Positions 6,001 to 54,686 of a stretch of DNA of 64,000 nucleotides are shown here, piece after piece. Each line of letters begins with the position of its first letter. Position 1 is the first letter of the stretch. The position numbers and the translations under genes were made by a program. Location of the stretch: the NCBI GenBank assembly GCA_016183565.1, contig JACPEJ010000001.1, positions 486,479 through 550,478 on the forward strand, read 5' to 3'. A model generated the notes under the pieces. It ran no database searches, was not told the DNA's origin, and worked only from the letters and a program-made list of their open reading frames with translations. This DNA comes from Candidatus Blackburnbacteria bacterium. GTDB taxonomy: Bacteria > Patescibacteriota > Microgenomatia > UBA8517 > UBA10165.

Positions 6001-6199
6001 TGATGATCAGCTTTTTGTACGAGGCGCTTTGGTAAGCAAGAGTGGCATTCTTCTTCAAAGAGATTTGGATCCGGCAAGAAGTGGTACGGGAAATAATACT
6101 ACGCCTTCGGAGTTTGTCGAGTATGCTCCGGATTTAGTCTTCAATTTTCCCACAGCTTTGAGTCGGGAGGGGGTGGTTTGGGAAGAGGTTGCACCGTAG
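3014..6199 (+). CDS. Large Cys-rich secreted surface protein (1061 aa) with Thr/Pro linker
   Basis: Signal peptide (ILFFILASFPSIAKAS). Cys-rich N-terminal module. Low-complexity T/P linkers (PTPTPTTPVITNTPTPTATT, GTTPTPNRGGGRATPTPTT). C-terminal motif EFVEYAPDLVFNFPTALSREGVVWEEVAP. Confidence 0.6.
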   Translation: MIKLPVSCKISFTFAILFFILASFPSIAKASNHRCGDYNVTQQCAFVESLPVTYPSGCSGARDLYNCNGLTCAIESAPSCSVVQRVCEYNSDRYNCGEAFADPSYCKTVLQGGDGVGGYGSINTWPPNRNSQNAYCGKYKDSDPRDPRPYCDDWWNACLASCEGATSDTNYACPGVQQCDQSHVCVTQAPQTTLLVNSQSSVTITEGNSATLAWSSVRAETCTASGAWSGGKVHQGSESTGDLSVRQGDGNQSTYTYTLTCSNTAGSGNSPVSVTVIVTRAATPNTPTPTTPVITNTPTPTATTAPPWTCDVWSTEGDRNAAGGACNANEYCVELGGTYNDPNNAIRWPVQQNWTWGSNLTPARTFKSFPYNSSTLVNMTAVDNSGSGTSQACTPKTVNVGPQSNPGGTTPTPNRGGGRATPTPTTGQPLSGTGAIRFFNSNCITPYTGPSTLRVLTHAQFGDGSWENGNGHNSLFYPSVTHSSAQDTGICDRREWHYYYDPGYQISSDGTFAGCPAQNMDGTGEWVCTGQPDCGYNAYGDWECQQCPGYRDGEGNDVCKEDTDSEERFPRCFSAFSSPATITSANPTLSVHSERSMQRTFSVGAPTGVRIKVIRVCTGDGCNWSRVGDPSVSPNGGGGASVVKDFGTSSAGPTNYFASPMEGADGNTSSYVYDVCVEDGTGGVTVGGNVFTDYGCDGRKDAVDTNYGGARIRITGGSTDEIKTTDSSGNYTSSALVKGQNYTADVEVPSGHRASTTDPLVYNNLNSNITNANFGFCPTASSWFQTKDSDLLSSGNMNSSIPRQCVQQLDSCSPYLSLNGDGGYPGVPVYNGTLSLGWGTVSANTSSTGWNANTRYTGRAYTYASFAAKMPTSGVTTTPDTIDSDGYFSLSGTPDSNGYKWFKATGNLTINGEGNINNQKVILFVPGNLTINNRVRLRKGEGFFAVFVGGEISISPEVIYQSQPAPKSNSQPGLEGMFFADGNIRTGTRSTATPVNDDQLFVRGALVSKSGILLQRDLDPARSGTGNNTTPSEFVEYAPDLVFNFPTALSREGVVWEEVAP

Positions 6200-7068: not shown

Positions 7069-7743
7069 TCAACTACTTGTAGTTGTAGATGATAGAGGCT
7101 CGGTTGCTTTCAAGGAGTCTAAGGAGAGGGGTACCAACTTGTTGGTAGGTGAGATTAGGTTCTCAAAGCTACCATCAATGATGCATCCTTCGAGAATCTT
7201 TTTTACGCCAGGTCTGAGAGGGTACTCCAGAAGTTCTTGTGGTTTTCGCCATCCCACTGCGACTACTTCACCGTCGCCAGATGTACCGATGAGGCTGTTT
7301 GGTTCTCCAGTGTAGTGCAAAATCACCACGCGTGCCAAAACACCCGGTCCAAAAACACTCTCTCCGAGAAAACATTTATCAGGATTTACTGCAAGGTGTC
7401 CATTGGCCAGAACTTCTGGGCCAAGTTCTTCTTGAATTCCACGGATTACATTGCTTGCCCAATCCTCGCCCCGTTCTGCAGTTTCACAAACAACACTAAA
7501 ATTCCCAATTTGCCCTCCGTCAGTGTCGTGAACTCTATTTTCCTGTACCAGAAGCATTTCTCCTTGGTTGTTTACGATGAATAAGACTGCCCCGATCTTT
7601 CTATAGTGTTTTTCAAGTTCGCTACTTCTGCTGAGCTTTCTCTCTACCATAGTGTTGGCGCTGTTTAGAACAAAAGGTGCAGCGTTGTGATAGTATACTA
7701 TTAGTTCCTGCTTTGATACAAATGACGCCTGAAGGAAGAACAT
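7069..7743 (-). CDS. Nudix-family hydrolase-like protein (possible IPP isomerase-type role given context); start possibly internal at nt 7650
   Basis: Contains E-x7-R-G-I-x-E-E-L-G (EDWASNVIRGIQEELGP), resembling the Nudix box ExxxxxxxREUxEExGU with one deviation. It is flanked by isoprenoid genes. No IDI-1 CCSHP motif, so function is uncertain. Confidence 0.4.
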   Translation of the reverse strand: MFFLQASFVSKQELIVYYHNAAPFVLNSANTMVERKLSRSSELEKHYRKIGAVLFIVNNQGEMLLVQENRVHDTDGGQIGNFSVVCETAERGEDWASNVIRGIQEELGPEVLANGHLAVNPDKCFLGESVFGPGVLARVVILHYTGEPNSLIGTSGDGEVVAVGWRKPQELLEYPLRPGVKKILEGCIIDGSFENLISPTNKLVPLSLDSLKATEPLSSTTTSS

Positions 7744-9564: not shown

Positions 9565-9675
9565 ATGGGGCAGCAAACACCTACTGAGTATGTCGAATAT
9601 GCTCCTGATTTAGTCTTCAATTTTCCCACAGCGCTTTCTCGGGAGGGGTTGGTTTGGGAAGAGGTTGCACCTTGA
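9565..9675 (+). pseudogene. Orphan 36-codon remnant duplicating the C-terminal module of the 3014-6199 surface protein
   Basis: MGQQTPTEYVEYAPDLVFNFPTALSREGLVWEEVAP* is about 90% nt-identical to 6107-6199 (EFVEYAPDLVFNFPTALSREGVVWEEVAP*). No upstream domain is present. Confidence 0.4.
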
Positions 9676-10907: not shown

Positions 10908-10925
10908 AAGGGGACGCCTTGCAAC
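10908..10925. repeat. REP palindrome copy a (reverse orientation): aaggggacgccttgcaa
   Basis: Reverse complement of TTGCAAGGCGTCCCCTT. Imperfect palindrome TGCAAGG-CGTCC-CCTTGCA. Confidence 0.7.
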
Positions 10926-10934
10926 CGTACTGAA

Positions 10935-11612
10935 CTAGTCGTCTTCAATAATTAGGTTGCTAGTTATCTGAGGAATTTCTTCCAATGCCATAAATTGTAT
11001 GTAGGACTTATGCTGTGTTTTGGGAAAGAAATTCAGAATTTCCTCTGGATGGATCCACGTGGTGTTGCGTAGTCCGCAATATTCGGGGTAGGAGCTTGGT
11101 TGGTTTTGCAAGGCGTCCCCTTGCAGGATTAAGGCTTGTTTGTGAATATACCGTGACAGATGCAGAAGCTGTTCATCAGTTTTAACAAGAACGGCTTTAT
11201 AGACATCTTGGTATAATGGTCCGACTCTCTTATACTTGGAATTAAAGTACATGGTATAGCGGGTTCCTAATGAGTTCATAAAGGGGTCAATTGCACTTTG
11301 GTTATTTTGTTTGATAAGAATGTGAAAGTGGTTGGGCATGAGGCAATATGCAACGAGGATAATGTCTGTTGCGAAGTTGTTAAGCCGAAGTAGCTTTCTG
11401 ATTCGATCTTTCTCATAAGGTGAGGTTGATTGATTTCCTAATTGCTCCATAAGTAGGTCTTTGTTAGCAGGTAGCAAGTATGTTTTTAGATAGGATAGGA
11501 ATACGCCGTAGTCCTGTTGATCCTGAAAGATAAGCCTTTTCTCTACCCCGCGGTTGTAGATATGGTAGTATCCGGTTGTTACATACTCCTTAACACTGTT
11601 TTTGGAGGGCAT
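10935..11612 (-). CDS. IS200-like / REP-associated tyrosine transposase (RAYT, HUH Y1 family)
   Basis: YHIYNRGVEKRLIF ... LVAYCLMPNHFHILIK (HUH motif) ... LSRYIHKQ (catalytic Tyr region). 225 aa. Confidence 0.7.
   Translation of the reverse strand: MPSKNSVKEYVTTGYYHIYNRGVEKRLIFQDQQDYGVFLSYLKTYLLPANKDLLMEQLGNQSTSPYEKDRIRKLLRLNNFATDIILVAYCLMPNHFHILIKQNNQSAIDPFMNSLGTRYTMYFNSKYKRVGPLYQDVYKAVLVKTDEQLLHLSRYIHKQALILQGDALQNQPSSYPEYCGLRNTTWIHPEEILNFFPKTQHKSYIQFMALEEIPQITSNLIIEDD
11104..11127. repeat. REP palindrome copy b, embedded in-frame in the RAYT ORF
   Basis: ttttgcaaggcgtccccttgcagg encodes ILQGDALQNQ on the minus strand, immediately after the RYIHKQ motif. Confidence 0.65.
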
Positions 11613-11640
11613 ACCTTAGGTTAATGGTATTGATTTGGTT

Positions 11641-11674
11641 TTGCAAGGTGTGCAAGGCGTCCCCTTGCAGGGGT
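11641..11674. repeat. REP palindrome copy c (tandem partial plus full copy)
   Basis: ttgcaaggtg tgcaaggcgtccccttgcagggg. Confidence 0.7.
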
Positions 11675-16083: not shown

Positions 16084-16172
16084 GATACAACTCGTTTCAA
16101 AACTCGTAGATTAATCTTATTAAATTTTTTGAAACGAGATTGGAGAAGCTGTTTTGAAACAGCTTCATAAAG
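16084..16172 (+). repeat. Copy A of a roughly 90-bp structured repeat element (two hairpins) in the rpmA leader
   Basis: gatacaactcgtttcaaaactcgtagattaatcttattaaattttttgaaacgagattggagaagctgttttgaaacagcttcata. Near-identical to 54045-54133; 5' and 3' parts shared with 40675-40764. Confidence 0.6.
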
Positions 16173-16240
16173 TAGTACAATCTATATTGAAGTGGTCTAT
16201 TGACTTGCGTGAAAAAGTGATGTAAAGTGAAAATGCTACA

Positions 16241-16498: not shown

Positions 16499-17347
16499 AT
16501 GGTTGACTTGTCATCAACTCAAATAGTCCAAATTCCGGTTGACGAACTGCAGCCTAATCCTCTACAGCCTCGCGGTGTAATAACCCCTGAAAGTTTAGTT
16601 GATCTTATAGATTCAATAAAAGAGCATGGAATTTTGGAACCTCTTGTTGTTGCGAAAACTCCTGCTGGATATCAGCTGATAGCTGGTGAAAGACGTTGGA
16701 GAGCGTCAAAGTATGCAGGGTTAACGCATGTTCCAGTTGTTGTCAAAGAAACTTCTCCTCGTGGGATGTTGGAGTTGGCGATTGTTGAGAATGTTCAAAG
16801 AGTTGATCTTAACGCTTTGGATCGCGCCAAAGGTTTCCAAAGATTAATGGAAGAGTTTGGTTTGACGAATGCCGATATTTCACAGAGGGTGGGTAAAAGT
16901 CCTGCATATGTTGCTAACAGCTTGAGATTACTTCGTTTGCCGGATGCTTTAAAGGATGGTCTTTTGTCAGGTCTTATTACGGAGGGGCATGCGCGAGCTC
17001 TTGCTGCGATTGAAGATCCAACTTTGATGGTTGAAGCTTATAAAATAATTTTGCGGGAGTCGGGTTCTGTGAGGAGGGCTGAAGATTTGGCCAGGAGAAT
17101 GAAAGCAAGTTCAGGTCAACCTGAGAACAAGAAAACTCCGCCTAAGCACCCGATTCTTGTTAGTGAGGAAGTAGATCGTATGACTGAAAGACTTAAGAGT
17201 GCATTGAGTGATGACGGTGTCGATAGGCCGACTAATATTAGGCTGTTGCGTTCCAGACGAGAGACAAGGATTGTGATAGTTTTTAAGGGTGGTCTTGAGG
17301 AAACAGAAGATAGGCTTCAGAAGTTAGTACAAGGTGTGGCTTCGTAA
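16499..17347 (+). CDS. parB: Chromosome partitioning protein ParB/Spo0J (no parA adjacent)
   Basis: HGILEPLVV ... YQLIAGERRWRASKYAGL (ParB box), plus an HTH region. Confidence 0.8.
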   Translation: MVDLSSTQIVQIPVDELQPNPLQPRGVITPESLVDLIDSIKEHGILEPLVVAKTPAGYQLIAGERRWRASKYAGLTHVPVVVKETSPRGMLELAIVENVQRVDLNALDRAKGFQRLMEEFGLTNADISQRVGKSPAYVANSLRLLRLPDALKDGLLSGLITEGHARALAAIEDPTLMVEAYKIILRESGSVRRAEDLARRMKASSGQPENKKTPPKHPILVSEEVDRMTERLKSALSDDGVDRPTNIRLLRSRRETRIVIVFKGGLEETEDRLQKLVQGVAS

Positions 17348-17945: not shown

Positions 17946-18022
17946 TGGTGGACTCGGAAGGACTTGAACCTTCGACCCCTGCAATGTGAATGCAATGCTC
18001 TAGCCAACTGAGCTACGAGTCC
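17946..18022 (-). tRNA. tRNA-Val (anticodon CAC)
   Basis: Reverse-complement GGACTCGTAGCTCAGTTGGCTAGAGCATTGCATTCACATTGCAGGGGTCGAAGGTTCAAGTCCTTCCGAGTCCACCA folds as a cloverleaf. Anticodon loop TTCACAT; CCA encoded. Confidence 0.8.
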
Positions 18023-18029
18023 TTTGTTT

Positions 18030-18140
18030 CAAAACCCAATTAGTGGGTCCTGTCAGGAGCTCGTCCCATCCGACGTCCTCGCCAACGCTGCGGTCACTCG
18101 ATGGGACTCCCCCCGCTCCTGACACCCACTAATTTTGGAA
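18030..18140. other. Roughly 100-nt GC-rich nested perfect hairpin (candidate structured RNA) between tRNA-Val and GT2
   Basis: Three stem segments: aattagtgggt/acccactaatt, gtcaggagc/gctcctgac, gtcccatc/gatgggac. GC content is far above the flanks. Confidence 0.4.
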
Positions 18141-18235
18141 ATGAGTTCTGGTTTATTTTACCACCTTTGTTTACGGGTATCTATTGTTTTTTGCCTTTGA
18201 TATACTTTGGCTAACCAGGGGTACAAAACTTCAAC

Positions 18236-29380: not shown

Positions 29381-29455
29381 GCGGGTGTAGTTGAGTGGTA
29401 CAATGCTTCCTTCCCAAGGAAGAGTTCGTGGGTTCGATTCCCATCACCCGCTCCA
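29381..29455 (+). tRNA. tRNA-Gly (anticodon CCC)
   Basis: GCGGGTGTAGTTGAGTGGTACAATGCTTCCTTCCCAAGGAAGAGTTCGTGGGTTCGATTCCCATCACCCGCTCCA. Anticodon loop TTCCCAA; CCA encoded. Confidence 0.8.
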
Positions 29456-29463
29456 AACAAAAA

Positions 29464-29558
29464 GATCGAACTTTGCAAATTTTAGCTTCAGGAAATTGTT
29501 AAAGTTTACTGAAATCTAGGCTCATAACGTTATACCCAGAAGGGAATCGAACTTTTTA
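29464..29558. repeat. Left copy of a roughly 95-bp degenerate direct repeat (att-like) immediately 3' of tRNA-Gly
   Basis: gatcgaactttgcaaattttagcttcaggaaattgttaaag...gggaatcgaact is about 75% identical to 32343-32437. Confidence 0.5.
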
Positions 29559-32342: not shown

Positions 32343-32437
32343 AATCGAACTCGTGGATTTTAGCTTCAGAAAGTCGTTAAATTTCGCTAAAATCTAATTC
32401 TATAACTTAATACCCTAACGGGAATCGAACTGTTTTT
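32343..32437. repeat. Right copy of the roughly 95-bp direct repeat, preceded by a tRNA-3'-end-like fragment
   Basis: aatcgaactcgtggattttagcttcagaaagtcgttaaat...gggaatcgaact. Upstream ...gtggttcgagcc...gctcca resembles a tRNA T-arm / 3' end. Confidence 0.5.
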
Positions 32438-40640: not shown

Positions 40641-40674
40641 TAGCAAGTTTGTGATATAGTTTGATTTGATGACA

Positions 40675-40764
40675 GATACAACTCGTTTCAAAACTCACGC
40701 GTTAGCTTCCGCTAACTTGTGTAAAGGTGAGATTGGAGAAGCTGTTTTGAAACAGCTTCATAAA
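40675..40764 (+). repeat. Copy B of the structured repeat element, in the gatC leader (variant central segment)
   Basis: gatacaactcgtttcaaaactc...gagattggagaagctgttttgaaacagcttcataaag. The central part is replaced by the gttagcttccgctaac hairpin. Confidence 0.55.
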
Positions 40765-53667: not shown

Positions 53668-53979
53668 CTACTTTTTCAAAATGTCCTTGAGGAGGGTGAG
53701 AATTTGTTCGAGAAATTTTGCAACTTCATCTCTTGGGCCGCGGACCTTAGCCTTAATCTCCACTCTTGTATCTGAATTTACAGCCGCGGGAGTCGCTGTT
53801 TGATCGGAAGCTGTTGTGGTAGGCGTAGGAAGGATTTCATCCTCCTGCCTATTTTCGATTTTTACCTCTATCCTATTTTTCCCGCTTCCCTGGTTGTCTC
53901 CATGCGAGAGCGCGACTGATGGTACGCTTATCAGAAGAAATAAAATTGTAAATGTTGAAAGAAGAATTTTTCCGTTCAT
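53668..53979 (-). CDS. Small secreted hypothetical protein (start taken at internal M, signal peptide)
   Basis: MNGKILLSTFTILFLLISVPSVALS signal peptide. The upstream ORF portion is encoded by the repeat element and is probably not translated. Confidence 0.35.
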   Translation of the reverse strand: MNGKILLSTFTILFLLISVPSVALSHGDNQGSGKNRIEVKIENRQEDEILPTPTTTASDQTATPAAVNSDTRVEIKAKVRGPRDEVAKFLEQILTLLKDILKK

Positions 53980-54044: not shown

Positions 54045-54133
54045 GGATACAACTCGTTTCAAAACTCATAGATTAGTCTTATTAAATTTTTTGAAACGAG
54101 ATTGGAGAAGCTGTTTTGAAACAGCTTCATAGT
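54045..54133 (+). repeat. Copy C of the structured repeat element, in the ECF sigma gene leader
   Basis: gatacaactcgtttcaaaactcatagattagtcttattaaattttttgaaacgagattggagaagctgttttgaaacagcttcata. Confidence 0.6.
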
Positions 54134-54146
54134 ATAATAAGCCTGT

Positions 54147-54686
54147 ATGGATGATGAGATACTTGGTCTTGTTATACGTGCCAAAAGGGGCGATAAAAAT
54201 GCATTCGGCAAACTTTATAATCTTTACTTCAAAAAGATTTATCGATACGTGTATTATTCTATTTATGGTCATGAATTATCAGAAGATATTACCCAAAATA
54301 CTTTTCTTAAGGCATGGAAATCGCTGCCTTCGTTTACTGTGGAAAAAGGAACTTTTCAGGCCTATATTTTTATGATCGCAAGAAACCTTGTCACTGACTA
54401 TCAAAGAAAGAGAAAAGAAATATCTCTTGAAGTAATCGAAGATACTACTTTTTCCGAGGAGGATTTGGCGGAGCAAATATCAAGGGAACAAAACAAAGAT
54501 ATGGTGCAAAATGTTCTTTCAGGCTTGAACGGTTTTGAAAAGCAAATTGTTATTTTGCGCTTTTTTGAAGAGTTATCTTTTTCTGAAATTGCAAGAGTTA
54601 TTGGGAAAAAGGAAGGAGCCCTAAGGGTGCAAATTCATAGAATTCTTAAAAAACTTGCGGAGAGATTAAAAGATTATGGAAACTAA
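54147..54686 (+). CDS. ECF-type RNA polymerase sigma factor (sigma-70 regions 2 and 4)
   Basis: Region 2: YRYVYYSIYGHELSEDITQNTFLKAWKSL. Region 4 HTH: LSFSEIARVIGKKEGALRVQIHRILKKL. Confidence 0.8.
   Translation: MDDEILGLVIRAKRGDKNAFGKLYNLYFKKIYRYVYYSIYGHELSEDITQNTFLKAWKSLPSFTVEKGTFQAYIFMIARNLVTDYQRKRKEISLEVIEDTTFSEEDLAEQISREQNKDMVQNVLSGLNGFEKQIVILRFFEELSFSEIARVIGKKEGALRVQIHRILKKLAERLKDYGN

Follow-up and report, generated by a model that had tools for sequence, protein, structure and literature searches.

Correia elements of Neisseria and RUP elements of Streptococcus pneumoniae, the latter linked to IS630-Spn1, are multicopy, non-coding repeats of ~100 bp or less, with terminal inverted repeats (TIRs) and duplication of a TA target. 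They are TA-flanked and intergenic, form hairpins, and can supply parts of outward-directed promoters. Rickettsia palindromic elements (RPE) are small palindromic repeats inserted in frame in protein genes, where they are apparently tolerated; they are not defined by TA-flanked terminal repeats. A literature search found no paper linking MITEs with the Candidate Phyla Radiation (CPR).

The repeat analysed here lies in a 64-kb stretch of a Candidatus Blackburnbacteria genome (the window, i.e., the whole stretch of DNA that was analysed, positions 1-64000), a CPR bacterium; the ParB and GatA encoded there are 100% identical to proteins of a MAG of this group, on a contig of 686 kb. A preliminary description had placed its copies in the 5' leaders of rpmA, gatC and an ECF sigma gene, and had read them as a cis-regulatory RNA or leader or, alternatively, as a small MITE that targets promoter regions. 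Most probably, the copies represent a MITE family that is new and resides in a CPR genome.

Structure and variation of the element

The window contains three copies, all on the + strand, delimited here from left ATA to right ATA. Copy A (16085-16169) lies between the rplU stop (16066) and a promoter-like site of rpmA, copy B (40676-40762) forms an in-frame, stop-free insertion of 84 nt after codon 2-3 of gatC, and copy C (54047-54131) occupies the spacer from which a small secreted-protein gene and the ECF sigma gene diverge. Their common ends are exact: the 5' 22-mer GATACAACTCGTTTCAAAACTC and the 3' 34-mer GAGATTGGAGAAGCTGTTTTGAAACAGCTTCATA each occur three times in the window, with zero mismatches and always on the + strand, against an expectation of 0 matches in dinucleotide shuffles. 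The copies were present at the positions initially given, with a single correction for the start of copy C, which is 54046 instead of 54045. Copies A and C share a type I centre and are 98% identical over 86 nt, bearing out the near-identity first reported. Copy B retains both ends and has almost the same length, with a different (type II) centre; its replacement hairpin GTTAGC-TTCC-GCTAAC (CACGCGTTAGC/GCTAACTTGTG) was found as described. Two sub-types with unrelated centres and identical ends coexist in the Candidatus Blackburnbacteria genome.

The core between the ATA triplets spans ~79-81 bp, beginning with CAACTCGTTTCAAAAC and ending with GTTTTGAAACAGCTTC. A search combined with direct reading identified TIRs of 16 nt, imperfect (12/16 matching), with a perfect core of 10 nt (GTTTCAAAAC/GTTTTGAAAC). 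In copy A, the left repeat CAACTCGTTTCAAAAC occupies 16088-16103 (+); compared with 16151-16166 as reverse complement, it matches at 12/16. The right repeat (16151-16166) is included in a 22-bp near-palindrome at 16145-16166 (+), GAAGCTGTTT-TG-AAACAGCTTC, referred to as hairpin 2; the second hairpin of the preliminary description, GAAGCTG..CAGCTTC, is exact and actually belongs to this longer near-palindrome. The 12-bp perfect inverted repeat, CTCGTTTCAAAA/TTTTGAAACGAG, is equally exact, and type I copies (A, C and those of loci L001 and L076) hold a third TTTTGAAACGAG in the centre. Coding capacity is absent from the 85-87 bp element, the internal ORFs ending after 19-23 codons. Among these is the minus-strand ORF beginning MKLFQNSFSNL, which does exist and meets a stop inside the element after 23 codons in copy A and 19 in copy B.

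With the addition of related loci, 12 distinct CPR-type insertions were available, all of 85-87 bp from ATA to ATA. Their centres are of three types, unrelated to one another and each forming a different hairpin. ATA was found on both flanks in 11 of these 12, and TA on most other members of the family. Individual copies fold more stably than their shuffles (z of -3 to -6.5), the two strands behaving about equally, and in related subfamilies compensatory changes preserve the stem of hairpin 2. In the set of 12 CPR-type copies, double-sided variation with pairing retained was seen at four positions of the stems, corresponding to ~4 events among 12 sequences; shuffles reached this in 0-1 of 500 cases, and slid controls were exceeded as well. 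The excess over shuffles suggests some structural or dyad-symmetry requirement beyond simple recognition of the ends. As far as the letters can tell, these changes may equally reflect a structural requirement (RNA or an ssDNA hairpin) or a co-evolving, dyad-symmetric protein site. Applied to the 12 copies, RNAalifold gave nothing beyond the constant end-to-end pairing, which the search pattern had already imposed.

Insertion sites and orthologous loci

The rplU-rpmA spacer measures 174 nt in the window and 98-129 nt in four syntenic relatives (L083, L084, L086 and L088), where copy A is missing from the orthologous position. The relatives keep the gene order ftsW-rplU-rpmA-parB, with ParB 79-86% identical, and no copy of the element was found in the ~20-kb locus of any of the four. 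Even these nearest relatives are too diverged to define an exact empty site. Downstream of copy A, and outside it, a promoter-like site of rpmA (TTGACT-17-TAAAGT; 16200-16228, +) contains the arrangement TTGAC..GTGAAAA..TAAAGT that is common to the window and to the relatives lacking the element. Copy A itself may form an outward hybrid promoter, TTGAAA-16-TACAAT, with the -35 TTGAAA in the end of the element and the -10 in the flank. As a general trait of the element this layout was rejected, only copy A and L012 (TTGAAA-17-TAATAT) fitting it and the other ten copies failing to do so. Promoter assignments at A, B and C are inferred from consensus matches and conservation. In one of the four relatives, a groundwater genome, FtsZ carries an intein with a LAGLIDADG domain (L084, 1576-3927).

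The dnaE-rplS junction is a second polymorphic site: in L023, a relative from a metagenome, a copy follows the dnaE stop by 2 nt, whereas the window, L090 and L091 lack the element at this junction. At L025, excision between the ATA triplets restores GGAGGT-8 nt-ATG. For the same organism, Logan contigs assembled from short reads begin within copies A and C (L093 in C), as expected at a multicopy repeat. In another Blackburnbacteria genome (L004), a copy is antisense to a RodZ-like gene and 11 nt from its ATG; at its 3' end this copy directly adjoins CATAGTG repeated four times in tandem (7240-7272, -). The TIRs anticipated for a MITE are present (12/16 over 16 nt). Flanking ATA and the excisions at gatC and L025 give indirect support for a target duplication; the ATA/TA flank being invariant, such a duplication is indistinguishable from conserved termini of the element.

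Copy B begins 7 nt after the ATG of gatC (40669-40671), which is preceded by a -10 box, TATAGT, at 40655-40660 (+), 8 nt away. The orthologue in L090 has identical -10/ATG geometry and the same sequence GATATAGTTTG, which contains TATAGT. The gatC frame crosses copy B without a stop, and deletion of the 84 nt between the flanking ATAs yields a GatC of 103 aa, MTDKVGLTPELVRKIAGLANL.., collinear with the 103-aa GatC of L090, MATKTKLTADLAHKIAGLANL..; an A/C-type centre in the same frame would hit a stop codon. The NCBI annotation is accordingly a read-through GatC of 131 aa (MBI2268340.1), of which 28 residues are encoded by the element. Judged from sequence, copy B is within the ancestral 5' end of gatC. 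Peptides predicted to derive from copy B are FKTHALASANLCK and GEIGEAVLK. The 'empty' GatC proteins, as reconstructed, had no exact match in the collection searched, and a protein search with the element-encoded peptide returned zero candidates, missing the known GatC as well.

Copy C lies upstream of the ECF sigma gene (54147-54686, +), opposite the small secreted-protein gene (53668-53979, -), whose real start is 53979. Its 3' end is 1 nt from a perfect TATAAT (54133-54138), itself 8 nt before the sigma ATG, so that copy C occupies the place of the -35 box of the sigma promoter. A -10 box located exactly 8 nt before the ATG recurs in both gatC (40655-40671) and the ECF sigma gene (54133-54149), an arrangement which suggests that the two mRNAs may be leaderless.

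By position, the copies do stand immediately upstream of gene starts, as first described, with the exception of copy B, which falls within the annotated gatC ORF. The assignment to 5' leaders is probably wrong for A and C, and for B the copy is inside that ORF. Targeting of promoter regions is not established either, since in compact genomes nearly every intergenic insertion adjoins a gene start.

The wider family of related repeats

An exact scan for hairpin 2 in species-representative genomes identified the copy of L004, which is of B-type, with the centre GTCCCGC-TTA-GCGGGAC as opposed to GTTAGC-TTCC-GCTAAC in copy B. A metagenome scan with the pattern TCGTTTCAAAAC-N35-65-GTTTTGAAAC yielded 75 loci or contigs, and the resulting family takes the form (Y)TA-SAAS-TCGTTTCAAAAC ... 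GTTTTGAAAC-NNN-TTC-(A)TA, with unrelated and usually hairpin-forming centres. Compositional bias extends outside the search pattern, both upstream (T47 A55 S A60 A56 S of 77) and downstream (NNN-TTC-(A)TA-R); 29 of the 77 elements show the 5' and 3' signatures together, compared with ~0.5 expected for the 5' signature alone. Some members, such as that of L035, have perfect inverted repeats of 24 nt. The neighbouring genes are diverse, unrelated housekeeping genes, some typical of Planctomycetes, and a Pfam scan of 106 neighbouring ORFs revealed neither a transposase nor a recurrent family. In high-GC metagenome contigs (L052 1840-2272; L016 720-813 and 2285-2400), isolated 22-bp palindromes (CAACTCGTTTCAAAACGAGTTG and variants) occur several per intergenic region, and because of these the palindromic end unit may, to judge by its letters, also occur alone.

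A broader interpretation, which we consider doubtful, is that all these repeats form a cross-phylum superfamily of very small mobile elements that has not been described before, hosted by CPR Microgenomates and by Planctomycete-like and high-GC soil bacteria. The ends SAAS-TCGTTTCAAAAC ... GTTTTGAAAC-NNN-TTC would be conserved, the centres would act as interchangeable hairpin cassettes within a near-constant total length, and the mover would be an enzyme needing a hairpin or dyad at the end. In-frame, translated insertions would then be tolerated even in essential genes, such as gatC, of streamlined CPR genomes. If a single kind of transposase did serve the wider family with GTTTCAAAAC ends, that enzyme would be worth identifying.

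Other repeats of the window were also considered. A candidate fourth, degenerate copy at 18024-18150 was discarded: its GC-rich core is a separate conserved hairpin that also occurs in L001, and conservation does not extend to the flanking GTTTCAAAAC. This ~85-nt hairpin (18043-18129), beside a tRNA at 17949-18022 (-), is 86% identical to L001:6101-6188 (-), shows two compensatory A-T to G-C changes with no Rfam match, and is a candidate conserved small RNA. Direct repeats of 79 nt, 77% identical and 2.9 kb apart (29479-29557 and 32357-32435), start just after a tRNA (29381-29452); between them lie a signal-peptidase/RDD gene and a BRO-N gene, and the whole may represent an integrated element with att-like repeats. 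A further direct repeat of 95 nt, 87% identical and 3.5 kb apart (6101-6195 and 9577-9671), is associated with two long genes, each unit lying at the 3' end or beyond it.

Competing explanations and comparison with known systems

Insertion of a miniature, non-coding element of the MITE type, with TIR ends and a TA or ATA target duplication, is the probable origin of the copies. The element is small and non-coding, is bounded by TIRs, is dispersed in unrelated contexts and within a same-end family, shows insertion polymorphism at both rplU-rpmA and dnaE-rplS, and coincides with assembly breaks; the MITE alternative raised in the preliminary description is therefore the one that gained support. 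The strong folds of the + strand (z of -4 to -5.4), the compensatory changes in hairpin 2 and in the stem closing the centre, the G.U pairs that some + strands contain (B and L076), and the co-orientation of 9 of the 12 CPR-type copies with a gene start 7-70 nt downstream (~p 0.07, weak and not significant) would also suit a structured RNA or leader acting in cis, co-transcribed with the gene downstream and controlling it via alternative pairing of GUUUCAAAAC with two UUUUGAAAC segments. We nevertheless regard this as very unlikely. The minus strand folds equally well, the whole centre is swapped between copies, the downstream genes are functionally unrelated, and the Rfam search that had been suggested gave no match at the elements, either in the window (at gathering thresholds and at E<=1) or in 20 related loci. 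Moreover, instead of keeping a fixed position and orientation in an orthologous leader, the element is absent from the same rpmA leader in four relatives and antisense in L004, and its copies relate differently to transcription units: A lies upstream of a conserved promoter-like site, B within the gatC reading frame, and C against a -10 box in the place of the -35. Such placements make a common leader function unlikely.

Small, intergenic, multicopy hairpins with covarying stems would fit recognition as ssDNA, and a syntenic Y1_Tnp gene is present in the window, so that a REP/REPIN-like or IS200/IS605-derived element moved as ssDNA by this Y1 (HUH) transposase (10935-11612) was weighed and judged unlikely. 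The link to the Y1 gene was rejected: another inverted hairpin repeat, TGCAAGGCGTCCCCTTGCA, flanks the gene, and the relatives L084 and L086 carry the gene but not the element, which also lacks a GTAG-type head and has the symmetric terminal repeats and TA/ATA flanks that Y1 elements lack. For its part, the IS200-like Y1_Tnp gene (10935-11612, -), syntenic in relatives, is flanked by inverted TGCAAGGCGTCCCCTTGCA hairpins within 10908-11670; the hairpin recurs within the gene (11102-11133) and at 60116-60147, and Logan contig L092 ends in the repeat. The gene and TGCAAGGCGTCCCCTTGCA look like a RAYT/REP pair. Dispersed sites at which a host protein would bind DNA (operator, nucleoid or ParB-like), whose unit would be a 22-bp dyad xxxxxxGTTT-YR-AAACxxxxxx kept symmetric by double-sided changes in its half-sites, appear highly improbable. 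The near-perfect 22-bp palindrome at the 3' end, the isolated palindromes of some high-GC loci (L052 and L016) and a TGTTT..AAACA core resembling parS half-sites agree with such a role, as does parB (16499-17347) in a window without canonical parS; yet the half-sites are spaced 4 bp differently from those of parS, the outer stem bases covary instead of being conserved, the neighbours form no regulon-like gene set, and the element is variably present at orthologous sites and is also found within a coding region. A parS-like site was discarded on this spacing, and canonical parS (TGTTTCACGTGAAACA, up to 3 mismatches) was also not found in window 1-64000.

Under the MITE interpretation, a transposase encoded elsewhere would move the element in trans by binding its conserved ends, and insertion would duplicate TA or ATA at the target. 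The TA/ATA flanks point to an IS630/Tc1-mariner-like or IS5-like DDE enzyme, a lead only, and are consistent with IS630/Tc1-mariner, for which no transposase was identified. Neither an autonomous element nor a transposase with these ends was present among the scanned ORFs of the 64-kb window. Plasmid BLAST gave only noise for an autonomous partner, the collection scans covered gaps of <1 kb, pattern scans of viral contigs produced 0 hits and 5 chance hits, and a literature search by element sequence retrieved unrelated primers only. Effects on neighbouring genes would be by-products of insertion: a possible outward hybrid promoter at A, 28 additional residues near the GatC N-terminus at B, and replacement of the sigma -35 region at C. 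Repeats of this kind can rewire promoters or extend proteins, and they break short-read assemblies of these organisms. The analysis puts on record a repeat family of active appearance in a CPR genome, and it strikes out, as a false candidate, the new regulatory RNA that had been proposed for rpmA, gatC and the ECF sigma gene.

Among known systems, Rfam leaders (ribosomal-protein leaders and riboswitches) resemble the element in the position next to rpmA and in the stable fold, but differ in that the element has no Rfam match, is not conserved in orthologous leaders and adjoins unrelated genes. REP/REPIN-RAYT systems share short, intergenic palindromic repeats and a Y1_Tnp gene in the window, but this gene has its own hairpins, relatives that carry the gene lack the element, and a GTAG head is missing. 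RPE resemble copy B, an in-frame, stop-free insertion of 84 nt that is annotated in the protein and, reading from the gene alone, apparently tolerated; of the three copies, however, B alone lies in a gene, and sequence and host are unrelated. The Correia and RUP elements differ from the present one in several respects, as its ends are 12/16 complementary with an internal 22-bp palindrome, its centres are swapped between sub-types, its host belongs to CPR and no cognate IS was found for it. With these elements it shares, as far as their descriptions go, its size, TIRs, TA flanks, intergenic sites, non-coding nature, multiple copies, hairpins and potential to supply outward promoter parts.
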